Counted from the first letter of the stretch, positions 28,321-46,452 are shown. The stretch is 64,000 nt of DNA from a bacterium (GCA_026417415.1 JAOADG010000012.1:8213-72212); one strand, 5' to 3'. Numbers and translations are program-made. The notes: a model not told the origin generated them from the sequence alone.

Positions 28321-28719
28321 ATGGCAAACAATATCCTTTTTGAAATTCTTACTCCTCGTGGAGTTGTTTACAAAGCAAATGTTAAACATGTTAAATTGCC
28401 GGGAATTGCTGGTCAATTTGGTGTACTACCTCAGCATATCCCATTTATGACGACTTTGGATATCGGTGTGATTGAACTAGACACCATTGAAGGAAAACAA
28501 GAAAAAATAGCTGTTTCTGGTGGATTTGTAGAGGTGCTTCCAGAAAAGATTGTTTTGTTTGCCGAAACGGCTGAAACTTCTGAAATGATTGATTTGCAAC
28601 GTGCACAAAACGCTTTACAACGTGCTGAAGAAAAATTAAAATCTGCAACTGACGAAATTGAAATAGAACGTCTGAAAATGGCGATTGCCAGAGCAAAAGC
28701 AAGAATTAAAGCAAAGTAA
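28321..28719 (+). CDS. atpC: ATP synthase F1 subunit epsilon
   Basis: EILTP, GQFGVLPQH.P, VSGGFVEV, C-terminal helical hairpin. Confidence 0.97.
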   Translation: MANNILFEILTPRGVVYKANVKHVKLPGIAGQFGVLPQHIPFMTTLDIGVIELDTIEGKQEKIAVSGGFVEVLPEKIVLFAETAETSEMIDLQRAQNALQRAEEKLKSATDEIEIERLKMAIARAKARIKAK

Positions 28720-28841
28720 TAGAAATCACTTTGTTTTTTTAACTTTGTATGTATATTAAGAATGGGGTTCTAACAACAGATTGAGAATCATTACATACTA
28801 AAAAAGTTGAAGAAATAAGGACTCGGTAAAGAGGTAACTTT

Positions 28842-30944
28842 ATGATTGGAATAACATCCTTCAGGAGAAGAACGATAGAGGGAATTTTTTTCTCTGTTTT
28901 TCTCATTGCATCCTTTGCGTATGGAGTTACTGAAGAGAAGTTCAAATTGGCAAAAATCCGACACGTTCAAAAAGAGATGATTGGGTTTACTGCAGAAAGA
29001 CAAATTCGAGAAAGATTTCTTCAACAACTTGTCCAAGGTAATGCTCGTGAAATACGTCTTAGAAGACGTGCTGGTGAAGTGGTACCAACCTTTTCTTATC
29101 CTGAAGGAGAAACCGAAAAATATTTTAATGTAGATGATACCTTAAACATCGTTGTTAATTTTTATGAATACCGTGATTCAGTTCGACTTGAATATGATAA
29201 AAAGTTAACTGCAGCAAGGAAAATTAAAAAAGATTTATTAGCAACTGCATCCCCGATAGCACTTGAGAGAATGAGAATATTTGATTGGAGTGCATTCTAC
29301 TCTGCTTACGGAGCAAACATTGAGCTACGCAGCGATCCACAACTTGCATTACTTATTTCTGATGAATACGCTAGAAATTATCCTCAAGCTTTAGCCGACA
29401 GTTTTTGGTTCTATCGTGGAGAAGCAGCTTTAACTGCTGGGTATTATCGCGAGGCAATAGAAAGTTATGATCGAGTATTTGTATTGGAGACCTCTGCATT
29501 CCGACCTAAAACAATCGAACGATTAGCATTTTTATACGCTGAATTAGGCGATGCAAAACGTGCGGATAGAGTGTATCAGGTTTGGTTAAAAGCGGGAAAA
29601 CCCCTTGCAGCAGATGGAAAAGTGGCTTTTCATATCGGACGTGCTCAATACGAAGCTGGAAATTATATCAAAGCAATAGAAGCGCTACGATTAGTACCCA
29701 ATAAAACACGATATGCATTTCGTGCAAAACTGTTATTAGGGTCAGCTTTAGCAAATACAGATCAATACGATAGTGCCATTGTCGTATTAAGGCCTTTTAT
29801 TACTCAAAAAGTCATTGATAGAGTTGCGATTGAACCTGAACAGTATGTTTATGCTGCTTTGTTAGTTGCTCAAATACGTACGCTGATGGGAAAAGGAGAT
29901 GAAGGTTTAAAAATACTATCTGTTTTGGATGTAAATGACGTCTATGGCGACAAAGTATTGTTTACAAAAGCATGGATTTACCGTACTATCGGCCGTTTTG
30001 ACGATATGGCACAAACGGCTGATTTACTTGTCCGCAAAAAAATATGGTCTCCTTATGTTCCTATTGCATCTGCTTGGTTATCAGAGGTTGCTGAATTAAA
30101 AGCGGATAAGTCCAGTGAAAAAAGCTATATCAACATCATAAAAATTTTAGAACAGAGTCAAAAAGCATCAAGATTTGCCGAAGAAAGATTAGGCATTTAT
30201 CGAATGATGAATGAACTCCATGAGTTAGAAGCACAAATCTTATTAAAAGAAGATATTGAATTGTTTAGACAGTATTTACGTGAACAAGGGCGATTAACGA
30301 ATTTGTTAGAATATAACCTGCATCATGCTACTTTAATTTCCAACCCATTGATCACAGAAATTTCAATGCTAACGGATTCACTAGCAAAGTACAGACTAAC
30401 GTTAAATCGTTTGCGACAAGTAGTAGATACAACAAAAAGCGGAAAATTAGAGAAACAATATATCCGATTAAGACGTGCGACTGAGATTCTCGAAGAGAGA
30501 TTGCAAGAAATTCATCGTTTGACCAAAAATTTACAACCTGCTATCCGTTTAGAGCAGGATCAAAAAGTGCTGTTAAGAGAATTAGATGCATATTCAAAAA
30601 AAGCACTTCATTTGCTATCGGAAGGTGCTGATCCTTCTACATTACCTATTCCTGATAGAGCAACGATGGCTCATTTGAATCTTGATAAATTCAGTTCACA
30701 ACTCATTTCAATGAAAATGGATCAAATACGAACCAATATAGATGCATTTGCTGGATTTGCGTTACAAAGATATGCTTTGGGTGGATTGGATTTTGATGTA
30801 TTGGTTCGACATCGAGAACAAAGCGATGAATTGACGTTGTACATCAATCAGATTAACGCTTTGATTGAAGCTAGAAATCAAGAATTTGATGAAGTTGAAA
30901 TGCGCAATATTCCTGAAAGTAAAAATCCGACTAATCCACAATAA
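28842..30944 (+). CDS. Exported TPR/coiled-coil protein (GltC-like position)
   Basis: Signal-peptide-like N-terminus; TPR helices such as FYRGEAALTAGYYREAIESY and FHIGRAQYEAGNYIKAIEAL. Confidence 0.75.
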   Translation: MIGITSFRRRTIEGIFFSVFLIASFAYGVTEEKFKLAKIRHVQKEMIGFTAERQIRERFLQQLVQGNAREIRLRRRAGEVVPTFSYPEGETEKYFNVDDTLNIVVNFYEYRDSVRLEYDKKLTAARKIKKDLLATASPIALERMRIFDWSAFYSAYGANIELRSDPQLALLISDEYARNYPQALADSFWFYRGEAALTAGYYREAIESYDRVFVLETSAFRPKTIERLAFLYAELGDAKRADRVYQVWLKAGKPLAADGKVAFHIGRAQYEAGNYIKAIEALRLVPNKTRYAFRAKLLLGSALANTDQYDSAIVVLRPFITQKVIDRVAIEPEQYVYAALLVAQIRTLMGKGDEGLKILSVLDVNDVYGDKVLFTKAWIYRTIGRFDDMAQTADLLVRKKIWSPYVPIASAWLSEVAELKADKSSEKSYINIIKILEQSQKASRFAEERLGIYRMMNELHELEAQILLKEDIELFRQYLREQGRLTNLLEYNLHHATLISNPLITEISMLTDSLAKYRLTLNRLRQVVDTTKSGKLEKQYIRLRRATEILEERLQEIHRLTKNLQPAIRLEQDQKVLLRELDAYSKKALHLLSEGADPSTLPIPDRATMAHLNLDKFSSQLISMKMDQIRTNIDAFAGFALQRYALGGLDFDVLVRHREQSDELTLYINQINALIEARNQEFDEVEMRNIPESKNPTNPQ

Positions 30945-30955
30945 TAAGGGAGTGT

Positions 30956-33900
30956 TTGCCTATGCGAAGATGTAACACTGGGTCATTAGTCATTTTCTAT
31001 GTTGCACTACTAAGTTGGATTTTACCTCAACAAGTATTGGCGCAATCCACTGATAACCTTGATTCTTTAGCTATTCTTCGTTTAAAAAACGAATTGCTTT
31101 CTATAGAAAAACAGTTAACAGAGATTACGCGTTTAAGTGGAACTGGTATTAGTGATCCGAATTCTCTTGCATCCCAACGATTTACTGAATTACGCGAGCG
31201 CCAAGTGGCGATTGAGAGACGCATTAAAATGCTCTCTTACAAAGGTTTGGACAATGATTCTTTAAGAATTTTAGTAGAAAATTACCAAAGAGAAAAAGAA
31301 CGCATTAACCGTGAAAGTCAGTCATTAAGAAAAGTATTTATTGCACGCTGCGAAACATTTTTGAATCAATGGAGACAAACAGATCCCAGACAAAGATTGC
31401 AAATACCGGATGATTTAATTGCACAAATTGTTTTAAGATTGGCCGAATTGTATGCTTTTGAAGCGTTTGATGATTATGGTGAGGCGATGGAAAAATGGAA
31501 TAAAAATCCAACTTTACCTGAACCAAAAGTGAATTACAACAAAGCAGCCAAAACCTTTGCAGAAGTGGTAAGAGATTTCCCCAACTCACGGTGGGCTCCC
31601 GATGCGATGTATAGTTTAGCGTATATCAAAACCGAACAAGCTAATCCTGATCCGTTTATCTATGATCCATTAAGAGATGAAGCAAGGAGTTTATATACTC
31701 AGCTTATTGAATACTACCCAACTAGTCGTTATGTGGATGAAGCGTATTTTGCGTTGGGAGATTATTGGTTCCATACTCCCCCAAAAAACACGAAACCTGC
31801 TCAGCAACTTGACTCCGCTGAATATTATTACAAACTGATTGTACAAAGAGGAAATAAAAATAAACTGGGTACCGCTTACTATATGCTGGGTTGGACTCAG
31901 TTTAGAAGAAACACAGGTATATCCTATGCAAGGGCGGTAGAATATTTTGAGAAAACAATTTATTTCTACACTGAGAACCCAGAAATCGTTGCGATAAGTA
32001 AACGGGATGATCGTGAAGAAGCCATTAAGTACATTGCAGGGATTTTTGTCGATCAAGGTAAAGTTTGGAACGGTTCAGGCGCTGCAAATGCTGTTCAATT
32101 TGTGGAAGCCGATTCATTTCGAGCAAACACTTATGGAACAAAGATGCTTGAAATACTTGGACAACAGCTTACCATCGCGCAGAATGCCTATGATTCAGCA
32201 ATTTATGTCTGGAAAGGAGCAATACGGATTGCACCTTTAAATGAACGTGCTCCATTTATCCAAAAAAATATTTTAGATATGGCACGATACGAACTGAATA
32301 ACATGAATCTGTGGTATGTTGAAGGGATCAAGTTATTTGAAAACTACAACTCTAAATCACCATGGTGGGCTGCGAACACTTCACCTAAGATACGAAAGCA
32401 AATCCGATCGATGATCCGTACTGTTTATGATGAAGTAACGCGCTATGCTGTTGCGAGATCAATTGATAATACTCGACCTGATTATAACCCAAGTATGATT
32501 GATGAAGCAATTAAACTTGCTTCAGGAATGGTGAATGAATTTCCCAATGATTCTGCTGCTTATGAATGGAATTTTCAAGTTGCTAATATGTTGGCAAGTC
32601 CGCAAGTCAATCGAATTGAAGAAGCATATGAGGAGTATAAAAAGGTTTCTGAAAACTATCCATTTACATGGCACAAGCAGGAATCCAATTTACAGATGCT
32701 TTTGCTAGCAAATGAAAAGGCAACCACGCAATTAAAAGCATTTCCTTACAAAGAAGCAGAAACAGATACTGCGACAGGTTTACCACTTGCTGTGAATGAT
32801 ACACTCACTGATGGCGAAAAACTACTCATACTCGCAGCTGATAAATATGCAAATTCATATCCACAAGATGATACCATCTCTTCTACCTACTTGTACAAAG
32901 CCGGTCTCGTACTTTACCGACGTGGCTACATTGATTCTTCTGCTACTTTTTTTAATCGTGTAATAAAAAATTATCCTACCTCAAAAGCTTATGAATCAGC
33001 ATTTCAATTGTATGTTAATACCTTTTTAGTGAAGAGAGATTTTAAAGGTGCAGAAGTTGCTACACAGGAACTTATTGCGGCACCAGTATCTGATTCTCTA
33101 AAGGTGTTCGCAAAAGAGAGACGTGCGGCAGCAGCTTTTTTCAATGCAGCCGGGCTTCAAGCCAGTGCTGAAAAAATTCTGGAAGATACAACAACGGCCT
33201 CGAAATCAGATGCTTATCGTATTTATGAAGAGGCAGGAGATAACTATGTGAAGGTTGCGGTAGAAACCGATCCTCAGTTCTTTAAAGATGGTGACTTAGC
33301 ATTAGAGAACGCTGCACTCTCTTATCGAAAAGCACAAAAACCAGAAAAAGTGATTTATGCATACAATTTATTAGTGGAAAAGTTTCCTACCTCTAATCGT
33401 GTTCCGAGAGCTTTATACAATTCCGGTTTGATTCTTCAGAATGAATTAAAAAACAATTTAGCTGCTGCACAAAAATTTGAATTGTTAGTCAAGAATTATC
33501 CCAAAGGCGAATACGATGTTAAACAAGCATTAATCAACGCTTCCTACAATTATGAAGAAGCAAAAGATTATTCAAGTGCAGTTCGTATCAATCAAGAATT
33601 TGCAAAGTTATTTCCTAATGAACCTGAAGCTGTCCAACTTCTCTTCAAAACTGCCGGATTGTATCTAAAATTAGGCAATGTGGATGGTGCAAATAAAATA
33701 TATGAAGAATTTGCTCGGCAATATCCCAATAGTCCAAACACTGTTGTGGCACATTATGAAAGAGCAAAGTACGCAGATGAGAGAAATGACCGCGTAGTGG
33801 CACGTAGAGAATATCAACTTGCCTATGAACGGCACAATCAGCTGGTCGCTGCAGGTGGTACTGGAAATCCAGAGTACGCTTCAAAGGCATTGTATCGGAT

Positions 33901-36349
33901 TACTCAATGGGATTTAGATACTTATAGAAACATTCAATTTACAGCGTCCAAGCAATATAGAGAAGGTGTACAACAACGCGATCAGAAAAAAGCATTAAGA
34001 GAAATCCTGTTTAATAACATTCGTAATCTTGTTCAGTTGAGTCAAATTGAACAATTTGAAGCGTTGTATTGGGCAGGTGAATTGGATGAAAATTTCGGTA
34101 CCACACATCTCAATCAAAAAGTTGAACCAGCAAAAGATGCAATTACCAATTATGACAATAGAGAGTTGATCATTGAAGAAACAATTGAGTTTTATAAACT
34201 CGCTGTTAAGGAATATGCGAATTCTCTTGTACAATACGATAAGGCAATAGAATTGCTTGAACAACAATACAACGAGCAAGTTGCATTAAGAGATACACTT
34301 TTTGCACAAATAGAAAAAATGACTCAGTCCAATGCATCTGGGATTGCAGACTCAAATACCGTTTTAGAGGTTAGAAACAATCTAGTCAATAAACTCAATA
34401 CTGCACTTGTTGAAGCAAAGAGATGGCGAGAGCGTGCCAGAGAAAAAGCTCCGGAACTTGCGTTTCGTAACGCAATGCTCAAAAAAGAGATATTATTAAG
34501 TGCTTCAGCTTTACCCGATGTTCCCAATCCTAAAATAAAAGATGTGGATGTTGGTAGAACTTTGTACCGTCAACAAGTACTAAGTGGTGTAATTGGTGAA
34601 TTCACGAAAAAACTTTTTGAATCCTTTATGGAAGCCATTAAAGTTGCACGAGAAGCTGGATACGAAGAAAAATGGGCACAACCTGCACGTGTTGAAATGG
34701 CTTCAGCAGTTGATTTTGTGTTGAAAGATGCATCACAATTGAATCAACGCTGGTTTGATATTTTTCAAAGATATCACCAAGATATCCAGAATTTATTACC
34801 AAGAGGTGAAGGTGCAAGAGATAGGCAACGAAGAGAAGTTTTAACCATAGCATCTGAACTTGAACAAATCGTTGCATTGTATGCAGGTGATAAAGGTGTA
34901 ACAGCTGTTGTAAATAAAATTATCAATGAACTAATCGAAATCATTCAATCCGATGAAAAAGAATTCGTAGCAATGCAACCTATGGTTGAGAAAGTTTTGA
35001 AATGGTATTTGGACGAAGCAGAAAAAACAGTTCCTTATATTGAAATTTCACGGAATGCTGATATAAGTGCGAAAAATAAATTTGCGGAAACCAGTCAATA
35101 TCAATATGAAGATGCATATCTAAAATATGAGTCCATCCGTTTGTACTTTGAAAGCCAATATAAAGATTTATTAAGTTCGGGTTATGATCTTAGTGAGCGG
35201 TATAAGTTTGATTCTCCAACAGTTCCGATGTTGATACAAAAGTTAGCAGAGATTGATCCTGAAACTTATGGTGCTAAAGTAGGGATCACTGTAAAAGAGA
35301 ACGTAGTTTATAGTGATGAAAATTGGATTGCGATTGATAAATATATTGAAGGATTTACTGAATCGAATTTAGATTTAACAGGTTGGAGATACGCTGAAAT
35401 TAGTCCTATGGTATTCAACGATAGTGCAAAAGCAGTATTGGGAGCTGCAAAACCTATACACTACGTAACCAAACCCAATGGAACCAAAACATGGTTCAGA
35501 AAAGCAGTTTGGATACCAGAAAGGGTTACCTCTGCATCCTTGTCATTTGTTGCAGATCAAATTGTTTCGGTATTTGCAAACAAAGAGTTTTTATACTCAA
35601 CTCCAGAAGAAGTTACAGATTGGACGATGCCAGTAACTATAGATGTTTCACCGATTATCAAAGCGGGATATAATGTTCTAACCTTTGAAGTCGAAGATAC
35701 GGATGGATCAAATAATGGAATTGCAGTGATGTTTAAATATCGAACAGTACCAGGTGTTGTAACTCCAGTTTATCCGGAACCACCCAATGCTTCAACGATT
35801 AACAATGTTAAGCGGGGATTGGATATACCACCTCCTGTAGAAACGAAAGCAGAGCCCACGATCGAAAAACAGGAACAAGTTACACCTGAAGCTCCTACTA
35901 CTGGAACAGAAGCACCGGTTGCTATTCCAGAAACCATTCCCCAGCAACCTGTAGAAACGCCTATACAGCAAGCTACACCGGTTCAGGAAGAACAGAAAGA
36001 AGTAGTTCCGGAAACAGAGATACCGGTTTCTACACCGGAATCAGTTCCACAACAACCTGTAGAAACGCCTACACAGCAAGCTGCACCGGTTCAGGAGGAA
36101 GTGACACCTAAAACTGAACAATTGGAAACAACACCAGTAATTCCTGAAGTAGAGCAACAAAAAGAAGTTTTACCAGAATCGGTCACAACACCAGTAGATA
36201 CAACTAATACAACAACTACTGTTCAAGACACAATTCAAACCTTGCCAGTTGAAGAAACAGTCCCAAGAGGAATGGAGGAATTAGAGGAAATTCCTGTGGA
36301 TACATCATCTGCTCCTGTGGACACTTTAGAACCTAATCAAGGTCAATAA
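30956..36349 (+). CDS. Giant exported TPR protein (GltD/AgmU-like) with jelly-roll domain and P/E/T-rich tail
   Basis: Signal peptide; many outer-envelope-type TPRs (FPNSRWAPDAMYSLAY, YPTSRYVDEAYFALGDY, AYYMLGW); WFRK...AD....FAN...G.N.L..EV.D beta-sandwich; low-complexity tail. Confidence 0.75.
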   Translation: MPMRRCNTGSLVIFYVALLSWILPQQVLAQSTDNLDSLAILRLKNELLSIEKQLTEITRLSGTGISDPNSLASQRFTELRERQVAIERRIKMLSYKGLDNDSLRILVENYQREKERINRESQSLRKVFIARCETFLNQWRQTDPRQRLQIPDDLIAQIVLRLAELYAFEAFDDYGEAMEKWNKNPTLPEPKVNYNKAAKTFAEVVRDFPNSRWAPDAMYSLAYIKTEQANPDPFIYDPLRDEARSLYTQLIEYYPTSRYVDEAYFALGDYWFHTPPKNTKPAQQLDSAEYYYKLIVQRGNKNKLGTAYYMLGWTQFRRNTGISYARAVEYFEKTIYFYTENPEIVAISKRDDREEAIKYIAGIFVDQGKVWNGSGAANAVQFVEADSFRANTYGTKMLEILGQQLTIAQNAYDSAIYVWKGAIRIAPLNERAPFIQKNILDMARYELNNMNLWYVEGIKLFENYNSKSPWWAANTSPKIRKQIRSMIRTVYDEVTRYAVARSIDNTRPDYNPSMIDEAIKLASGMVNEFPNDSAAYEWNFQVANMLASPQVNRIEEAYEEYKKVSENYPFTWHKQESNLQMLLLANEKATTQLKAFPYKEAETDTATGLPLAVNDTLTDGEKLLILAADKYANSYPQDDTISSTYLYKAGLVLYRRGYIDSSATFFNRVIKNYPTSKAYESAFQLYVNTFLVKRDFKGAEVATQELIAAPVSDSLKVFAKERRAAAAFFNAAGLQASAEKILEDTTTASKSDAYRIYEEAGDNYVKVAVETDPQFFKDGDLALENAALSYRKAQKPEKVIYAYNLLVEKFPTSNRVPRALYNSGLILQNELKNNLAAAQKFELLVKNYPKGEYDVKQALINASYNYEEAKDYSSAVRINQEFAKLFPNEPEAVQLLFKTAGLYLKLGNVDGANKIYEEFARQYPNSPNTVVAHYERAKYADERNDRVVARREYQLAYERHNQLVAAGGTGNPEYASKALYRITQWDLDTYRNIQFTASKQYREGVQQRDQKKALREILFNNIRNLVQLSQIEQFEALYWAGELDENFGTTHLNQKVEPAKDAITNYDNRELIIEETIEFYKLAVKEYANSLVQYDKAIELLEQQYNEQVALRDTLFAQIEKMTQSNASGIADSNTVLEVRNNLVNKLNTALVEAKRWRERAREKAPELAFRNAMLKKEILLSASALPDVPNPKIKDVDVGRTLYRQQVLSGVIGEFTKKLFESFMEAIKVAREAGYEEKWAQPARVEMASAVDFVLKDASQLNQRWFDIFQRYHQDIQNLLPRGEGARDRQRREVLTIASELEQIVALYAGDKGVTAVVNKIINELIEIIQSDEKEFVAMQPMVEKVLKWYLDEAEKTVPYIEISRNADISAKNKFAETSQYQYEDAYLKYESIRLYFESQYKDLLSSGYDLSERYKFDSPTVPMLIQKLAEIDPETYGAKVGITVKENVVYSDENWIAIDKYIEGFTESNLDLTGWRYAEISPMVFNDSAKAVLGAAKPIHYVTKPNGTKTWFRKAVWIPERVTSASLSFVADQIVSVFANKEFLYSTPEEVTDWTMPVTIDVSPIIKAGYNVLTFEVEDTDGSNNGIAVMFKYRTVPGVVTPVYPEPPNASTINNVKRGLDIPPPVETKAEPTIEKQEQVTPEAPTTGTEAPVAIPETIPQQPVETPIQQATPVQEEQKEVVPETEIPVSTPESVPQQPVETPTQQAAPVQEEVTPKTEQLETTPVIPEVEQQKEVLPESVTTPVDTTNTTTTVQDTIQTLPVEETVPRGMEELEEIPVDTSSAPVDTLEPNQGQ
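35903..36100 (+). repeat. 108-nt (36-aa) tandem duplication in the acidic tail
   Basis: CAACCTGTAGAAACGCCTA at 35945 and 36053; PQQPVETPIQQATPVQEE versus PQQPVETPTQQAAPVQEE. Confidence 0.85.
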
Positions 36350-36372
36350 GTGGAATAGGAAAGGAGAAAATT

Positions 36373-36690
36373 ATGAGAGTTATCATTGTCATTTTATCCT
36401 TATTCAGTTTAGGTATCGGTTCTTTGGCGTATTCACAACAAACGATGACTTTTGAAGAAAAAATTCGAGCGGAAGTGGATTTTCCAAAGTGGATGCTCTT
36501 TGGTGGAAGACAAAGATCGGAGTTCCCAAAGGCGACTTTGGATTTAAATGCAAGCGATATTTTAACAAAAGTACCGTATGTATTATATAGAGCGGATCCA
36601 GTTGAAAGAAAACCCTTACTGGGTTTTCAACTAAATGATAAGGATTTTTATACACCAACCATTAAAATTGAGTTTGAATTAAAAAGGTAA
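36373..36690 (+). CDS. Small secreted protein (GltF/CglF-like position)
   Basis: AAGGAG SD, signal peptide ending AYS, 105 aa, sits between the TPR genes and exbB. Confidence 0.55.
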   Translation: MRVIIVILSLFSLGIGSLAYSQQTMTFEEKIRAEVDFPKWMLFGGRQRSEFPKATLDLNASDILTKVPYVLYRADPVERKPLLGFQLNDKDFYTPTIKIEFELKR

Positions 36691-36719
36691 TTGCAAGAAT
36701 TTGTTATTTCAATTATATT
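36691..36719 (+). promoter_or_regulatory. Candidate internal sigma70 promoter for the motor genes
   Basis: TTGCAA-N17-TATATT, ending 42 nt before the exbB-like ATG. Confidence 0.45.
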
Positions 36720-36761
36720 CGCAACTTGGTTAAACAATAGGACTTTAACGGAGGAATCAAA

Positions 36762-37406
36762 ATGGAACAATTTTTATCAAAGTTCTTCTCAGCTTACAAC
36801 TTAGCAAATGATGGAAGTTTGTTTATGTGGGCAATTGCTTTAATGGGTGCTTGGGGTCTAGTAATCATCGTTGAACGCTTTAACACCATTTGGATGAAAG
36901 CCAATGTAAACGCAAAAGCGTTTATGACAGAAATTTATCAGTATTTGCGTTCAAATAACGTAGATGCTGCAATCAAACTCTGTAGTGAGGGTGAACAAAA
37001 AGCATTGGTCAAAGTTGTCGGTGCAATTCTAAAAGCGTATAAGCAACACGGTGATTATCGTGCCATGCAAAATGCAGCTGACGAAGCGGTTTTGGAAATT
37101 GTACCACATTTGAATAAGCGTACTCCAATGCTACAAATGATCTCGGGTGTATCTACGTTGTTAGGGCTAATCGGGACCATTTATGGTTTGATTATTGCAT
37201 TCTCTGCTGCTGCTGCTGCCGGTGCGGGTGGTTCTCAAGCATTAACGGTAGGTATTTCTGTAGCAATGTTAACGACCTTTGCCGGTCTTATGAATGCTAT
37301 TCCGATTTCATTGTTGCATGCTGTTATCCAAAGCAAGACCAATCATATCATTGAAACCATTGACGAAAATTCTGTAAAATTGATGAACTTCTTAATTGCC
37401 AAATAA
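36762..37406 (+). CDS. MotA/TolQ/ExbB proton channel subunit (AglR-like)
   Basis: IIVERF, TLLGLIGTIYGLI.AF, GISVAMLTTFAGL..AIP. Confidence 0.93.
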   Translation: MEQFLSKFFSAYNLANDGSLFMWAIALMGAWGLVIIVERFNTIWMKANVNAKAFMTEIYQYLRSNNVDAAIKLCSEGEQKALVKVVGAILKAYKQHGDYRAMQNAADEAVLEIVPHLNKRTPMLQMISGVSTLLGLIGTIYGLIIAFSAAAAAGAGGSQALTVGISVAMLTTFAGLMNAIPISLLHAVIQSKTNHIIETIDENSVKLMNFLIAK

Positions 37407-37439
37407 TTGGATTAAAACAGAAGAAAGGAACTTTATTTT

Positions 37440-38060
37440 ATGGCGTTCCAACCATCCAAAAAGGCAAAACTGTTATTTAGAGATTACTCGGAACCTGATT
37501 TAGTCCCGTTAATGAACATCATGTTGATTTTGATTCCTTTGTTGGTCTCAATTGTATCGTTCATTCAGTTTGCTTTCTTACAGTATAATCCTAATCCTGC
37601 AGCGGGTGGAGAAGGCGCTGGTGGAGGTGGCGGTGGAAGTGGTGAAGCGGGAGAAATGTTAAACTTGGTGCTTAATATTACTGAAAATTCTTTTCAAATT
37701 TCAGTTCTCAATGCACTGCCAGGAAGTCCTAACTATTTTGAAATACCAAAGTTAGAGAATGGGCGATACAACTATACCGGTCTTAAAGATCGGTTAATGT
37801 ACATTAGAAAAGAAATCGTTAAAGATCCTATTGAGACGAAAGAAACCATTGATCCGTTAACACGACAGATTTCTTATACAATGCGGTTTCGTTACGCTGA
37901 TGGAAATATCATCAACATATCAGCAAAGAATGAGATTCCTTGGCAAGTATGTACACGAGTACTTGATGTCATTCGTGAGTACGAAGTGAAGACACTTCCG
38001 AACGGTGCAAAATTATCTATCCCTTTGTTTGCTGAACCTGTATTTGGTCAAATTCAATAA
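37440..38060 (+). CDS. ExbD/TolR-family subunit 1 (Asn at the conserved TM Asp)
   Basis: DLVPLMNIMLILIPLL TM; periplasmic I.ISA...IPW.....VLD..R. Confidence 0.85.
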   Translation: MAFQPSKKAKLLFRDYSEPDLVPLMNIMLILIPLLVSIVSFIQFAFLQYNPNPAAGGEGAGGGGGGSGEAGEMLNLVLNITENSFQISVLNALPGSPNYFEIPKLENGRYNYTGLKDRLMYIRKEIVKDPIETKETIDPLTRQISYTMRFRYADGNIINISAKNEIPWQVCTRVLDVIREYEVKTLPNGAKLSIPLFAEPVFGQIQ

Positions 38061-38078
38061 GAGAGGAGTGGTAGCATT

Positions 38079-38576
38079 ATGGCAATGAGCCCCACTAAAA
38101 GGGTAAAAAATAAAACCAAAGAGTTTAAAATGCCGCCATTAACCTCGTTAATGGATGCCATAACCATCTTGACATTCTTTTTATTGACTCAAATGTCAAC
38201 CAGCACGATTTTACATCCACTTATTGAATCGGTTCCTAAATCTACCGTTGAAAACGAAGTAGTCAAAGGGTTAGTTCTTGGATTAGACCGTAGTGGATTG
38301 TTTCAGGATCTTGGACAAACAGTAAAAGAAGAACAGCGAAAAATTTTGTTGGCATCACCTAGCGAGATGGAATCACCTGAACTGGATATACCAGCATTAA
38401 CCGCAGTATTAAGTGATGAAATCCAACGTACTCAAGCAAGAGGTCTTCCACCACATACCATTACATTAATGGTGGATTCATTGATAAAATACAGTTGGGT
38501 ACTCAAAGTCATTAATACAGCAGGCAATTTGAATTATCCAAAAATTGACTTTGTGGTATTAAAAGGAAGAGGATAA
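38079..38576 (+). CDS. ExbD/TolR-family subunit 2
   Basis: LTSLMDAITILTFFLL TM, VPKS, D..I.Y....KVINTA....Y.KI.FVV. Confidence 0.88.
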   Translation: MAMSPTKRVKNKTKEFKMPPLTSLMDAITILTFFLLTQMSTSTILHPLIESVPKSTVENEVVKGLVLGLDRSGLFQDLGQTVKEEQRKILLASPSEMESPELDIPALTAVLSDEIQRTQARGLPPHTITLMVDSLIKYSWVLKVINTAGNLNYPKIDFVVLKGRG

Positions 38577-38586
38577 GGGGGAAACT

Positions 38587-39633
38587 ATGGCTACAGCGGT
38601 TTCTACGTTCCCAAAACATTTGGAAAGGAATTGGTTCCGTGAAAAAATGGAGGAAGACCGCGATTTTCTGATCATCTTCTTCTTAGGATACCTATTGGTA
38701 ATCACTTTTTTTGCGGTGATGGGTTCTTTAGAATGGAAAGAAATGACGCTTGAAGATGCACAAAGACATTTAGATAAATTGTACTCGGTAAAGACATCTA
38801 CGCCTGCCTATGCACGACGGCAAATTATGCAACAAGGTAAGAAAGAAGAAGAAGTGAAAACTGCTGATGAAGGACGACAAGCAGAGGCACGTGGAAGAAC
38901 TGAAGAAAAGAAAGTTCTATCTGCGGAAGAACGTCGTGCTCGCCGTGAAGCTGCTGCTGGTGCTATGTCTGCACAGATTGGTTCTGCCATTGATGCCGCT
39001 TCATCTGTAGGAATCTTTAGACGTGCAGGTGCTGCTGGTGGTGGACGTGGAGGTAGAGGTGCAGGTGCAGTTGCTGGGCTTAGCACCGGTATTGGTAGCG
39101 GTGCGGACATGAAAGGTCTTGCGGGTATTGGTGTATCTGGTCAGGATTTAGCCAATGCCCAGCGATTGAGAGGTTCAGGTTCACTAATTGAAGGTGGTGG
39201 TGGTACTGGTGGTAGGTTAAATTTAAGAGATATGACACCTGCGGAAATTGATGCATTGATTAAGCGTGCAAGTGTTAAAGCCGTAGGAGCACCCACAGTT
39301 GTAGGTTCAGAAAAAGCCAAAGTTGCTAAAGGTAGAACCACTGAGGATTTATCAAGACAAATTGCAAGTTATTCTAATCAAGTTAAAGCATGTTATCAGC
39401 AGTTTTTAAGACAAGATCCCAATTTAGCTGGAACTGTTCGTTTATCTTTTACCATAAAACCAAATGGCACTACTTCAGCAGTGCGAGTCACGGAAAGTGA
39501 TTGGAGTGATGCAAGTTTAGGAAATCGAGTAAACGCATGTATTGTTCAACGAGCACAAAGTTGGAGATTTGATCAAATAGAAGCTACGAGTGGTGACTTG
39601 ACTGTAAATTACACGTATGTATTTTCTCGGTAA
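38587..39633 (+). CDS. GltG/AgmX-PglI-like TonB-type energy transducer
   Basis: N-terminal TM, charged helix, Gly/Ala-rich linker, C-terminal VKACYQQFLRQDPNLAGTVRLSFTI.P.G...V.ACI......WRF...V.Y.YVF domain. Confidence 0.85.
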   Translation: MATAVSTFPKHLERNWFREKMEEDRDFLIIFFLGYLLVITFFAVMGSLEWKEMTLEDAQRHLDKLYSVKTSTPAYARRQIMQQGKKEEEVKTADEGRQAEARGRTEEKKVLSAEERRARREAAAGAMSAQIGSAIDAASSVGIFRRAGAAGGGRGGRGAGAVAGLSTGIGSGADMKGLAGIGVSGQDLANAQRLRGSGSLIEGGGGTGGRLNLRDMTPAEIDALIKRASVKAVGAPTVVGSEKAKVAKGRTTEDLSRQIASYSNQVKACYQQFLRQDPNLAGTVRLSFTIKPNGTTSAVRVTESDWSDASLGNRVNACIVQRAQSWRFDQIEATSGDLTVNYTYVFSR

Positions 39634-39693: not shown

Positions 39694-39730
39694 AAGGAAC
39701 CGTAGTCATCTTCGGTTCCTTTCTAATTTT
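39694..39730 (+). terminator. Terminator-like hairpin closing the TPR-motor cluster
   Basis: AAGGAACCG-10 nt loop-CGGTTCCTT followed by a T-rich tract. Confidence 0.6.
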
Positions 39731-39754: not shown

Positions 39755-41497
39755 ATGCGAACAAACTACTGTGGGTTGTTATCAAGTCACGATTTAGGTA
39801 AGTCAGTAACTTTATGTGGATGGGTAGATAGAATTAGGGATTTAGGTGGTTTGGTGTTTATTGATTTGCGTGATCGTGAAGGGATTATCCAAATCAATGT
39901 ACCTCAAGGAGAACTGACAGAAATTGCAAAGCAATTAGGGCGCGAATACGTCATCCAAGTACAAGGCGAAGTCGTTAAGAAACCCGTTCCGAATCCTAAG
40001 TTAAATACAGGTGATATTGAAGTTTTGGCAAGTTCAATTGAAATTTTTTCCCCTGCAAATTTGCCTCCTTATGAATTAAGTGAACCCAATGTATCCGAAG
40101 AACTGCGATTGAAATATCGTTATTATGATTTAAGAAGACCGGAGCTACAAAACAATTTGCGTATTCGTGCAAAAGCGATGCGGTCTGTGCGATCGTTTTA
40201 TGATGCACATGGATTTATTGAAGTAGAAACACCTGTTTTAATGCGTTCCACACCTGAAGGTGCAAGAGATTACATTGTTCCATCACGCATCCATCAAGGG
40301 TGCTTTTATGCGTTACCTCAATCTCCACAACAGTACAAACAATTGTTAATGGTTGCAGGCTTTGATCGATACTACCAAATTGTAAAATGTTTTCGTGATG
40401 AAGATTTACGTGCAGATAGACAACCGGAGTTTACTCAAATTGATGTGGAAATGTCTTTTGTTAAGGAAAACGATGTAATGACTATTGCAGAAGAAATGGT
40501 GGTGGTGCTTTTTCAGGAGGTTTTACAAGTTCAGTTGCCGACACCGTTTCCAAAACTTGATTTTGAAACCGCAATGAAAATCTATGGTTCTGATAAGCCA
40601 GATTTACGTTTCCAACTACCACTAATTACGGTTACAAAGTATTTTCAAAATAGTGGTTTTCATGGTTTCGATCAGGAAGTTGAAAAAGGTGGTGAAGTCG
40701 TCGCGTTAAAACTACATGGACAATCTAATGTATCGCGTAAATCTTTAGATGTATGGCAAGAGAAAGCTAAAAAATATGGTCTTGCTGGTCTGGTGACCAT
40801 TAAAAAGCAAGAAAGTAATTTATCCTCAAGTATTTCTAAATTTGTCTCACCTACAACTATACAAAACGTTGCAAATGCACTTGAGATGGAAAACGGAGAT
40901 TTAGTGATATGTGCTGCTGCTGATCCGGAAACCATTTATCCTGCTTTTGGAAACTTACGAGTTTACTTTGCAAACGAATTCAATTTAATCAAGAAAAATC
41001 AGTGGGCACCTGTATGGGTAGTCGGTTTTCCATTGTTTGAATGGAATAAAGAAGAAAATCGTTGGACTGCGGTACATCATCCTTTTACATCGCCTATTCC
41101 AGAACATGAAAGTATCTTAGAATTGACTCCTGAACGTGTGAAAGCACGTGCTTATGACTTGGTTTTAAATGGAAATGAAATAGGTGGTGGTTCAATACGC
41201 AACCACCGTTCTGATTTACAAAAAAAAGTATTTTCTGTACTTGGTCTTTCTCAAGAAGAAGCAAAAGAGAAATTTGGGTACTTTTTAGAAGCATTGACTT
41301 ATGGTACACCACCTCACGGCGGTATTGCGTTTGGTTTCGACCGGATAGTTGCTTTACTATGCGGTGTGGATAACATTCGTGAAGTGATTGCGTTTCCGAA
41401 AACGACTACTGCAGCATCTCTTATGGATGGTTCACCTGCACCGGTGTCACCTAAGCAGTTACAAGAATTGGGAATACAAATTGTTCAATCAAAATGA
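39755..41497 (+). CDS. aspS: Aspartate-tRNA ligase
   Basis: MRTNYCG, FIDLRDREG, STPEGARDY, CFRDEDLRADRQPEFTQID, PPHGGIAFGFDR. Confidence 0.98.
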   Translation: MRTNYCGLLSSHDLGKSVTLCGWVDRIRDLGGLVFIDLRDREGIIQINVPQGELTEIAKQLGREYVIQVQGEVVKKPVPNPKLNTGDIEVLASSIEIFSPANLPPYELSEPNVSEELRLKYRYYDLRRPELQNNLRIRAKAMRSVRSFYDAHGFIEVETPVLMRSTPEGARDYIVPSRIHQGCFYALPQSPQQYKQLLMVAGFDRYYQIVKCFRDEDLRADRQPEFTQIDVEMSFVKENDVMTIAEEMVVVLFQEVLQVQLPTPFPKLDFETAMKIYGSDKPDLRFQLPLITVTKYFQNSGFHGFDQEVEKGGEVVALKLHGQSNVSRKSLDVWQEKAKKYGLAGLVTIKKQESNLSSSISKFVSPTTIQNVANALEMENGDLVICAAADPETIYPAFGNLRVYFANEFNLIKKNQWAPVWVVGFPLFEWNKEENRWTAVHHPFTSPIPEHESILELTPERVKARAYDLVLNGNEIGGGSIRNHRSDLQKKVFSVLGLSQEEAKEKFGYFLEALTYGTPPHGGIAFGFDRIVALLCGVDNIREVIAFPKTTTAASLMDGSPAPVSPKQLQELGIQIVQSK

Positions 41498-45165: not shown

Positions 45166-46452
45166 ATGGAACCATTTCTGATAATCTTACTTTTTGTAGC
45201 CCTCTATTTTTTCCTTTTTATCATTGTTACTGTAGAGATTGCATTTTTTGCTTTAACGAAAAAGGACATGGATGTACTGAACAAAGAAAATGATTTTGAG
45301 AGAAAAATTATTATTTATCGTCGAAAACCCAGAGAAATCATTTTAACTTCAATCACAACGACTACAATTTTTTTATTAGCATTAGGTGTTTTAATCGCTT
45401 ACTGTACGAAATTGATCGCACATAATCAACTTAAAACCTTTACCACAATTAACTTGTTGATTTGGTTTTTCGTTCAAGTATTGGTGGTCATTTTAATAGG
45501 TGGAATACTACCTAGAATTTATGCAGTGGCTAATCCCATACAGACGTTAAGACGTTTTTTACCTGCGTTCTTTTTATTTTATAAAATCTTTTATCCCGTG
45601 GTCTCGCTCTTACGATTGATCACCACGAGGTTGGCAATTCTATTAGGTGTACACAAAGAGAGTTTGTACGTATCGGAAAGTTTTGTTTCAGCCATTGTAG
45701 AAGTAGAACAAGAAAATGATCACGTAACCGAAGAAGAAAGGAAAATGATTCGAGGGGTAATGGAGTTTGGTGATAAAACAGCAAAAGAAATCATGGTACC
45801 CCGTCCTGATGTAGTGTTTCTAAGTGTAGATATCAATATCCCAGATGCAATACGTTTGGTAAAAGAATCTCATCGGAGTAGAATTCCTGTTTATGAAGAG
45901 AACATTGATCATATCGTAGGTATTTTGTATGCAAAAGATTTATTGGGTGAGTTACCTGAAAATGCAACCATTCGTTCGTTATGTCGTGCTGCACATTCAG
46001 TTCCTGAATATAAAAAGGTAGATGAGTTGTTGAGGGAAATGCTGCGATTGCATATCCACATGGCAATCGTGATAGATGAATATGGTGGAACGTCAGGAGT
46101 TGTGACCTTGGAAGATATCGTAGAAGAGATCATCGGGGAAATACAAGATGAGTACGACCGTGATACGAAAAAAATCGAAATTGAATCTGAAAATTCATGG
46201 ATTGTGGAAGCGAGTTTTCTAACTTCAGAATTAAACCGAGAATTAGATACCACAGTGGTTCCAGAAAGTGATGAATATGACACAATTGGAGGTTATATTT
46301 TATCAATTGCAGGTCGTGTACCTGATATCGGTGAAGAATTCGCAGTTGGGAATTGGAAATTTATCGTTGTCAACAAATCACAAACTAGAATAAAAAAAAT
46401 TCGGATTATTAAAGAAGAAGTAGTACAGGATACTGAAGATGAATCTGAGTGA
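45166..46452 (+). CDS. HlyC/CorC (CNNM-CBS-CorC) family transporter
   Basis: N-terminal TMs, EIMVPRPD, SRIPVY, AIVIDEYGGTSGVVTLEDIVEEIIGEIQDEYD. Confidence 0.93.
   Translation: MEPFLIILLFVALYFFLFIIVTVEIAFFALTKKDMDVLNKENDFERKIIIYRRKPREIILTSITTTTIFLLALGVLIAYCTKLIAHNQLKTFTTINLLIWFFVQVLVVILIGGILPRIYAVANPIQTLRRFLPAFFLFYKIFYPVVSLLRLITTRLAILLGVHKESLYVSESFVSAIVEVEQENDHVTEEERKMIRGVMEFGDKTAKEIMVPRPDVVFLSVDINIPDAIRLVKESHRSRIPVYEENIDHIVGILYAKDLLGELPENATIRSLCRAAHSVPEYKKVDELLREMLRLHIHMAIVIDEYGGTSGVVTLEDIVEEIIGEIQDEYDRDTKKIEIESENSWIVEASFLTSELNRELDTTVVPESDEYDTIGGYILSIAGRVPDIGEEFAVGNWKFIVVNKSQTRIKKIRIIKEEVVQDTEDESE

Follow-up and report, generated by a model that had tools for sequence, protein, structure and literature searches.

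The stretch analysed here, 64,000 nt of one strand of contig JAOADG010000012.1 (8213-72212; assembly GCA_026417415.1) and called the window below, belongs to a 2.2-Mb bacterial genome in 40 contigs (G000) that is rated 100% complete. Behind the atpD-atpC genes of an ATP synthase operon it carries seven open reading frames (ORFs), all on the plus strand between 28842 and 39633, with intergenic gaps of 11, 23, 71, 33, 18 and 10 nt, bearing out the co-oriented, closely packed gene set described in an earlier note on this DNA (Table 1). The ORFs encode two tetratricopeptide repeat (TPR) proteins, a small secreted protein, a TolQ/ExbB-family channel subunit, two unlike ExbD/TolR-like subunits and a TonB/TolA-type transducer. 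The cluster is likely to be a variant, typical of the Fibrobacterota-Chlorobiota-Bacteroidota (FCB) lineages, of the Agl-Glt/Nfs "core complex", that is, a machine powered by the proton motive force, reaching across inner membrane and periplasm and related to the Tol and Ton systems while being a copy of neither. Its gene content, the family relationships of its proteins, an Asn/Asp signature in the ExbD-like pair and conserved synteny were observed in the analysis and are described below.

Table 1 Features of the seven-gene cluster and of its flanks, in window coordinates
Feature	Position	Strand	Basis
AU-rich long hairpin in the atpC-TPR gap	28729..28820	+	fold -27.4 kcal/mol, z -3.83
GltC-like periplasmic protein, 700 aa	28842..30944	+	signal peptide; TPR ~170-400; coiled-coil C-terminal half
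GltD-like scaffold, 1797 aa	30956..36349	+	Pfam/NCBIfam TPR; hydrophobicity scan; structure prediction
Small secreted GltF/CglF-like protein, 105 aa	36373..36690	+	N-terminal hydrophobic signal; profile comparison
AglR-like TolQ/ExbB-family proton channel subunit, 214 aa, three transmembrane segments	36762..37406	+	MotA_ExbB E 3.1e-21
First ExbD/TolR-like subunit, 206 aa	37440..38060	+	weak ExbD match, E 2.3e-3
Second ExbD/TolR-like subunit, 165 aa, canonical transmembrane Asp kept	38079..38576	+	weak ExbD match, E 5.8e-6
GltG-like TonB/TolA-type transducer, 348 aa	38587..39633	+	AgmX/PglI C-terminal domain; best whole-protein match GltG
GC-rich hairpin, then U-rich run	39694..39721	+	RNA folding; sequence

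The upstream gene atpC ends at 28719, 122 nt before the gene of the 700-aa TPR protein, and aspS starts at 39755 downstream of the cluster. The 122-nt spacing given earlier for the atpC junction stands, and the accompanying statement that no clear terminator hairpin lies there needs qualification, since the gap contains an AU-rich hairpin whose stability was matched by none of 200 shuffles and which lacks a U-tract. Its shape was not kept in the three relatives compared. This element may serve as a weak terminator, as a site of processing or as a structure for regulation, so that the cluster may or may not be co-transcribed with the atp genes. Within it, the word TAACTTTG at window positions 28740-28747 resembles the Bacteroidota -7 promoter element. 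At the other end, the closing hairpin reported previously was recovered together with its U-rich run and is the likely terminator of the cluster; a scan for sigma-70 promoters and terminators returned no more sites than in shuffled sequence and missed this 3′ hairpin because of its long loop. Hydrophobicity scanning placed N-terminal signal-like segments in both TPR proteins and the small protein, three transmembrane segments in the channel protein, and one each in the first ExbD-like and the GltG-like proteins.

Conservation was assessed at two depths. The same-phylum sample comprised 31 genomes, the source genome counted in; 22 of them contained a GltG-like protein above the domain cut-off, and one more had the orthologous channel gene at a contig break. 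Sixteen regions in relatives were examined, comprising 14 primary loci and two second AgmX/PglI-domain matches lacking the cluster. The order channel, ExbD, ExbD, GltG-like was found in all 14 primary loci, both TPR genes in most of them, atpD-atpC upstream in five and aspS downstream in most. The cross-phylum search, with one genome per species and two motifs taken from the channel alignment, gave 184 relatives, the best 80 of which were used. Among these 80 were 42 FCB-type loci, defined by a GltG-like protein shorter than 440 aa, in genomes labelled in their records as Calditrichota, LCP-89, Zixibacteria, KSB1, Delongbacteria, Electryoneota or as metagenome-assembled genomes (MAGs) of Bacteroidota. 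Most of the 42 also kept the order of the genes. Of the 29 FCB-type loci whose sequence extends 9.5 kb or more upstream, 28 contained a large GltD-like TPR gene, and aspS followed in 27 of the 42. An arrangement that recurs in 14 of 14 loci, with the GltD-like gene in 28 of 29, is therefore not due to chance, and the TPR genes adjoin the motor in relatives instead of lacking synteny with it, the adverse outcome envisaged in the earlier note. Another 28 GltG-like-bearing loci among the same best 80 came from MAGs labelled Myxococcota, Deltaproteobacteria or Oligoflexia, together with some that are probably mislabelled (Myxococcota-type loci below); their channel proteins shared 40-47% identity with that of the window, and Myxococcota and Oligoflexia loci contain its nearest relatives beyond the FCB-type phyla. 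The distribution shows that the minimal version of the core is vertically conserved and housekeeping-like in several poorly known phyla, and is not a sporadic transfer into one Fibrobacter species. In one MAG the whole cluster occurs twice, on two contigs (L050 and L052; also G024:C28 and C42) with identical motor proteins and similar coverage, as would result from a recent duplication or from a duplicate made in assembly or binning.

The motor proteins set the cluster apart. The channel protein has TolQ as its top NCBIfam matches and carries a family-specific C-terminal motif of the IDEHSVKL type. Across 101 genomes of a second phylum, an ExbB profile scored at least 249 bits in six genomes and at most 125 bits on all other ExbB/TolQ proteins, and this split sharply separates the channel family from ordinary Ton and Tol proteins, with which the cluster's proteins might have been expected to group had the proposed relationship been wrong. 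The motor proteins group with those of Myxococcota-type core loci, far from the Ton proteins of the same genome, in a comparison that has a very long outgroup branch and does not include named M. xanthus AglRQS. In a tree from the joined sequences of all three motor proteins (74 rows), the Myxococcota type formed one clade with good support and the FCB type at least three clades; its base is unresolved and its outgroup branch very long, and no direction of transfer between the FCB phyla and Myxococcota is claimed.

The two ExbD-like subunits differ at the residue expected to carry protons. The first has a Gly-rich linker after its transmembrane helix and Asn at the canonical transmembrane Asp position, where Asn occupied 74 of 79 alignment rows (H in three, E in one and D in one). 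The second has Asp at the same position in all 73 rows having a residue there. This Asn/Asp pairing is common to FCB-type and Myxococcota-type loci, and Asp is found in the genome's own two Ton ExbDs and in its TolR. From this we predict that the ExbD-like proteins form an obligate heterodimeric axle in which only one site can be protonated. A D28N substitution in M. xanthus AglQ is reported to abolish motor function (PMC3858216), and a published model presents the motor as AglR5-AglQ-AglS with a long linker on AglQ alone (PMC11761067). In the present cluster, by comparison, it is the Asn subunit that bears the long Gly-rich linker, and either of the two ExbD-like subunits may correspond to AglQ.

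The transducer also links the cluster to the Glt proteins. Its C-terminus passed the model of the AgmX/PglI C-terminal domain (NF033768, 74.8 bits, cut-off 40), and the best match of the whole protein was GltG (NF033760, E 1.5e-22), at 79.9 bits compared with an equivalog cut-off of 650, so that by NCBI's usage it does not count as an orthologue of M. xanthus GltG. The C-terminal domain missed both TonB-family cut-offs (PF03544, 18.2 against 24.6; TIGR01352, 23.7 against 27.1) and is distantly TonB-like, PDB TonB chains being found at E 2e-4. The protein is built of ~23 cytoplasmic residues, in which F8, P9 and D24 are invariant in the alignment, one transmembrane helix (~24-42), a charged and Gly-rich linker, and the AgmX/PglI C-terminal domain. 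About 23 residues precede the helix in FCB-type proteins versus ~150 in the Myxococcota type, and the Myxococcus GltG model has its transmembrane helix at 330-348, preceded by a cytoplasmic part with an FHA domain that binds GltI (PMC11761067). A homologue search with the whole protein returned three matches, for which the Gly-rich linker is probably to blame. Prediction of a complex between its C-terminal domain and the small protein scored close to zero and counts neither way.

Both TPR proteins may correspond to Glt components. Full-length relatives of the GltC-like protein were present in FCB-type loci, and its profile matched the GltC-like proteins of Myxococcota-type loci in hhalign (99.6% probability, E 1.7e-23) across the TPR region, where matches are permissive; one of these partners scored 61.9 bits on the GltC model (cut-off 450). 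The GltD-like protein consists of a signal peptide, an N-terminal helical part, YbgF/BamD-like TPR_6 repeats, a further helical region, a beta-sandwich (aa 1431-1610) and a Pro/Thr/Glu/Gln-rich tail. Its TPR region matched YbgF at 79.8 bits and CpoB was also matched, and NCBIfam GltD returned no match for the 1797-aa protein. Proteins of ~1150 aa at the GltD position in Myxococcota-type loci were matched by its N-terminal part in 17 loci and by its TPR part in 11, and position and order are alike.

The C-terminal beta-rich domain was found in 35 FCB loci and in none of the Myxococcota loci. Its AlphaFold2 model reached a pLDDT of 88.8, and in a Foldseek search against the PDB the top structures were glycoside hydrolases of family 2 (GH2; beta-glucuronidases and beta-galactosidases; E ~5e-6, TM-score ~0.5). 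On this modelled fold, the domain may be read as a galactose-binding-like jelly roll as found at the N-terminus of GH2 enzymes, with which a weak NCBIfam rhamnosidase match at aa 1506-1602 is in line. The tail (aa 1611-1797; window 35786-36346) is rich in Pro, Thr, Glu, Gln and Val and contains near-repeats of a PVETP..QQA.PVQEE unit; no match for it was found in the loci of relatives.

In FCB-type loci an ORF of 100-130 aa (two in a few loci) separates the large TPR gene from the channel gene, and Myxococcota-type loci contain an ORF of 73-110 aa directly upstream of the channel gene, behind the GltE-like gene. The 105-aa protein of the window matched no Pfam or NCBIfam family. An iterated profile search started from it gathered 66 of 231 small upstream ORFs, from both cluster types, and FCB-type and Myxococcota-type alignments matched each other in hhalign (96.4% probability, E 1.2e-9), the aligned stretch being partly signal peptide. 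Weak matches to the CglF model NF033764 were obtained for all six Myxococcota-type small proteins (E 1.5e-4 to 0.086), and CglF is the same protein as GltF (PMC4488436). The proposed GltF-like identity is thus backed at the profile level, and the 105-aa protein, judged from its sequence, is a divergent member of a family common to both cluster types. The GltF-like gene appears to be part of the ancestral unit; the 2011 survey, in its account of gltF, confined that gene to Myxococcales and Bdellovibrionales (PMC3169522).

According to Luciano et al. (2011, PMC3169522), the core complex consists of gltC, gltD, gltE, gltG, aglR, aglQ, aglS and one further gene; it was reported there from Gamma- and Betaproteobacteria, from Geobacter and from Fibrobacter succinogenes, its function in these groups not being established. 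In an NCBIfam scan, one Myxococcota-type locus (L088) contained, in order, a GltC-like protein (61.9 bits), a 1153-aa YbgF-type TPR protein at the GltD position, a GltE-like protein (153.5 bits), a TolQ-like protein, two unassigned ExbD-like proteins and a GltG-like protein (135.9 bits), the gene set of the published core complex. Upstream of the L088 cluster lies a gene for a PBP4-type D-Ala-D-Ala carboxypeptidase and downstream of it FtsK, with unassigned genes of ~180, 480 and 230 aa between the GltG-like gene and FtsK, of which the 483-aa product has a weak EpsL-type barrel match; other Myxococcota-type loci have ORFs of ~940-1030 aa at FtsK's downstream position.

The present cluster shares with the Agl-Glt/Nfs core one TolQ-type gene followed by two TolR-type genes and a GltG-type transducer that has a transmembrane helix at its N-terminus and the AgmX/PglI domain at its C-terminus. 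To judge from position and profile matches, the GltD-like and GltC-like TPR proteins of the same co-oriented unit are probably shared as well. The cluster differs in lacking the GltE-like gene, of ~500-640 aa, that precedes the channel gene in Myxococcota-type loci, and in having a GltG-like protein without a cytoplasmic domain. Its GltD-like protein has in addition a helical region, the galactose-binding-like domain proposed above and a disordered tail. The GltF/CglF-like small gene belongs to the FCB-type unit, and the FCB-type cluster is often kept between atpDC and aspS across several phyla. With the distinct ExbB profile, the Myxococcota-type relatives and the synteny, the central proposal of the earlier note holds, namely a proton-driven machine of the envelope that resembles the Agl-Glt core and stands apart from ordinary Ton and Tol systems.

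Several points weigh against this interpretation. The link to M. xanthus runs through loci of Myxococcota MAGs and NCBIfam models, bona fide AglR/Q/S, GltC and GltD sequences being outside the comparison. The GltG equivalog cut-off was missed by the wide margin given above, and in the NCBIfam scan neither the GltC (NF033756) nor the GltE model matched the TPR proteins of the window. Profile matches between TPR proteins, as for the GltC-like protein, come easily. Within the cluster, no GltE-like gene and no outer-membrane barrel were found. The sugar-binding interpretation of the GltD-like C-terminal domain follows from fold similarity, at a TM-score of ~0.5. Finally, the cluster is absent from eight of the 31 same-phylum genomes (family f6, genus g5), four verified by a missing channel orthologue and the other four inferred from sub-threshold domain matches, and is hence dispensable in some lineages.

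The source genome has four loci of the MotA/ExbB family, the present cluster included. A canonical TolQ-TolR-TolA-TolB-Pal-YbgF locus lies on another contig (C1), and a Ton operon (G000:C38:713033-718193) encodes a PstS-like protein, a 558-aa TPR protein, ExbB, two ExbDs and TonB. The fourth is a Zorya-like ZorA/ZorB pair (G000:C10:4368-6624), with a ZorB2 match at E 1.7e-48 and weaker ZorA matches, neighboured by an M48 peptidase, two PknB-type kinases, a PP2C phosphatase and an FHA-ABC transporter. The Ton operon is situated directly behind nuoL-M-N, and the present cluster behind the ATP synthase operon, so that two proton-consuming motors each follow a proton-handling complex. ORF calling with Pfam and NCBIfam scanning detected no TonB-dependent receptor, TolB or Pal within the cluster, as had been noticed from the sequence; six receptors with a Plug domain are encoded elsewhere in the genome. 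With these receptors, the canonical Tol-Pal locus and the Ton operon at hand, ordinary Tol and Ton functions are already served, and the cluster is a third MotA/ExbB-type system, apart from Tol-Pal, the Ton operon and the Zorya-like pair. The ExbB-ExbD-TonB system belongs to the same motor superfamily and the GltG-like C-terminal domain is distantly TonB-like; the cluster differs from it in the missed TonB_C and TIGR01352 cut-offs, in the Asn of the first ExbD-like subunit, where both ExbDs of the genome's Ton system have Asp, and in having no linked receptor.

For stoichiometry, contacts and cargo we infer the following scheme. By homology with the Tol, Ton and Agl motors, five AglR-like channel subunits would surround an axle of two unlike ExbD-like proteins, of which only the second carries a protonatable Asp, and proton flow would move the short GltG-like transducer. 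The TonB-like C-terminal domain of the latter, with its linker, may then act on a large periplasmic scaffold of the GltD-, GltC- and GltF-like proteins, by analogy with the published Glt model, an AlphaFold prediction in which GltG wraps GltD and GltF bridges GltC and GltG (PMC11761067). The FCB-specific sugar-binding-type domain and the disordered tail of the GltD-like protein would probably contact a glycan, which could be peptidoglycan, lipopolysaccharide or a surface polymer.

The use of such a machine is probably neither gliding nor nutrient uptake. Most likely, by analogy, it would move or hold a component of the outer envelope or the surface, as the Agl-Nfs machine is reported to move spore-coat glycan in M. 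xanthus (Wartel et al. 2013, PMC3858216). Agl-Nfs, in the description of that paper, combines an Agl-type motor with Glt paralogues that move surface glycan and not the cell, and it is the best functional analogy for a glycan-contacting scaffold; it differs in having outer-membrane components and a tie to sporulation, neither of which has a counterpart here.

The main rival among the uses lies in envelope integrity or division, for which the cluster would be a second Tol-like system, tethering or constricting the outer membrane and keeping wall synthesis coordinated, the YbgF/CpoB-like TPRs of the large protein taking the role of CpoB. The two systems share a channel of the TolQ-like pentamer type, TolR-like subunits, a TolA/TonB-like transducer and a YbgF-type periplasmic TPR protein. 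The TolQ matches of the channel and the YbgF and CpoB matches of the GltD-like TPR region point this way, as does the Myxococcota-type GltD-like protein, which passes the YbgF cut-off (116.3 against 90). Wall-related genes adjoin the cluster in some lineages, namely the PBP4 and FtsK genes of the one Myxococcota locus mentioned above, and LD-carboxypeptidase and SpoIID/SPOR genes downstream in some FCB loci, and the housekeeping flanks atp and aspS are conserved. Nevertheless, we consider a Tol-like role unlikely. The complete canonical locus is already present in the genome, TolB and Pal occur in none of the clusters, and the cluster's proteins, marked by the Asn/Asp signature, are a group by themselves, having two unlike TolR-like subunits, one without Asp, next to giant TPR proteins. 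Moreover, whole otherwise similar families lack the cluster, and the neighbouring genes vary among lineages.

Still less probable is that the cluster is the proton-driven energiser of type 9 secretion (by the T9SS), or a mover of surface proteins anchored by that system, in FCB lineages without GldLM/PorLM, as the earlier note had speculated for the export of proteins with a type 9 C-terminal domain (CTD). The GldLM/PorLM complex of Bacteroidota likewise couples a proton-driven inner-membrane motor to a periplasm-spanning transducer in hosts with SprA and CTD cargo, and this genome carries SprA and 64 CTD matches. No credible match was obtained in it for GldL, GldM, GldK, GldN or the first domain of GldM, so that the reported lack of GldLM is upheld as a non-detection; the GldM model, as a positive control, matched 24-25 of the 101 genomes of the other phylum. 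A topology search for an adjacent membrane pair resembling GldL/GldM returned just an SPFH pair and LapA/LapB. SprA was present in each of the 43 FCB-type genomes with the cluster that were examined (23 from the own phylum, 6 from the second phylum and 14 further), and none had a GldM match. In the LCP-89/f5 clade, moreover, a gene for a PorU-like sortase of ~1100 aa with a CTD (NF033707, 308-341 bits) lies directly upstream and co-oriented, about 330-370 nt from the cluster and ahead of the GltC-like gene, in eight loci (L018, L025, L026, L038, L039, L040, L051, L064), of which at least two pairs are from the same genome. It was the only direct genomic tie to type 9 secretion seen. Elsewhere in the window, a CNNM/CorC-type protein (45166-46452) reached 258 bits with the GldE model, whose cut-off is 376; gld motor genes were not detected in this genome.

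The phyletic pattern argues against such a role. All eight cluster-free same-phylum genomes have SprA and no GldM match, and the six that were counted hold from 72 to at least 150 CTD matches (E 1e-9), compared with 22 to at least 150 in cluster-bearing genomes. Since these close relatives keep SprA and CTD cargo, the cluster is not required for type 9 secretion there, and profiling against CTD number and GldLM absence, suggested in the earlier note, weakens its proposal, cluster-free genomes being as rich in CTDs as cluster-bearing ones. In the second phylum (101 genomes), 49 of 80 SprA-positive genomes had neither GldM nor the cluster; it is thus common to find SprA and no GldM match, in part perhaps because the models are not sensitive enough. 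The two GldM models, TIGR03517 and PF12081, picked out one and the same set of genomes, and neither matched certain genomes with SprA above 2500 bits. In three of these (G054, G059 and G120) SprA is near full length, and their GldM/PorM is either overlooked by the models or absent. Myxococcota-type homologues occurred in SprA-free genomes in four of four tested, and the window's cluster contains no T9SS gene. Its proteins also have no sequence relationship to GldLM/PorLM and another architecture. It is similarly doubtful that a Glt-type core was the ancestral proton engine of type-9-style surface display in FCB-related phyla without detectable GldLM, acting on SprA/PorV/PorU complexes or moving anchored cargo, with GldLM a later replacement specific to Bacteroidia and the PorU-like gene of the LCP-89 clade a remnant. 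A literature search limited to listings and a few passages yielded no paper on GldLM-free type 9 secretion in the phyla concerned. Many SprA-bearing genomes beyond the classical Bacteroidia are without detectable GldLM, and the counts given here put a number on this gap in the energy source of type 9 secretion.

A Myxococcus-type gliding machine, the motility use put forward earlier, is very improbable: the cluster is homologous to the core of the Agl-Glt apparatus and Bdellovibrio is reported to glide with expanded core sets (PMC3169522), yet in the view of the same survey the core alone does not drive motility, the GltG-like protein, with its ~23 cytoplasmic residues, lacks the kind of domain by which GltG/GltJ make the link to the cytoplasmic platform in the full M. 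xanthus machine, GltE and an outer-membrane barrel are absent from the cluster, and the CglC and CglE models, run without a positive control and in a search that left GltA/B/H, GltI/J and MglA aside, matched nothing in the genome.

The preferred reading, an FCB-type variant of the Glt core that most likely moves or holds an envelope or surface component, bears on a question that has been standing since 2011, namely the role of the Glt core complex outside gliding myxobacteria. The Agl-Glt core complex itself is known, and one FCB member, Fibrobacter succinogenes, is listed in the 2011 survey (PMC3169522); what is new is the FCB-type variant across several phyla, a minimal version without the cytoplasmic platform and without GltE or an outer-membrane barrel in the cluster. 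It could provide experimental handles on such machines in the obligate Asn/Asp pair of ExbD-like subunits, in the GltF-like small protein of the ancestral unit and in the scaffold domain of predicted glycan-binding type.

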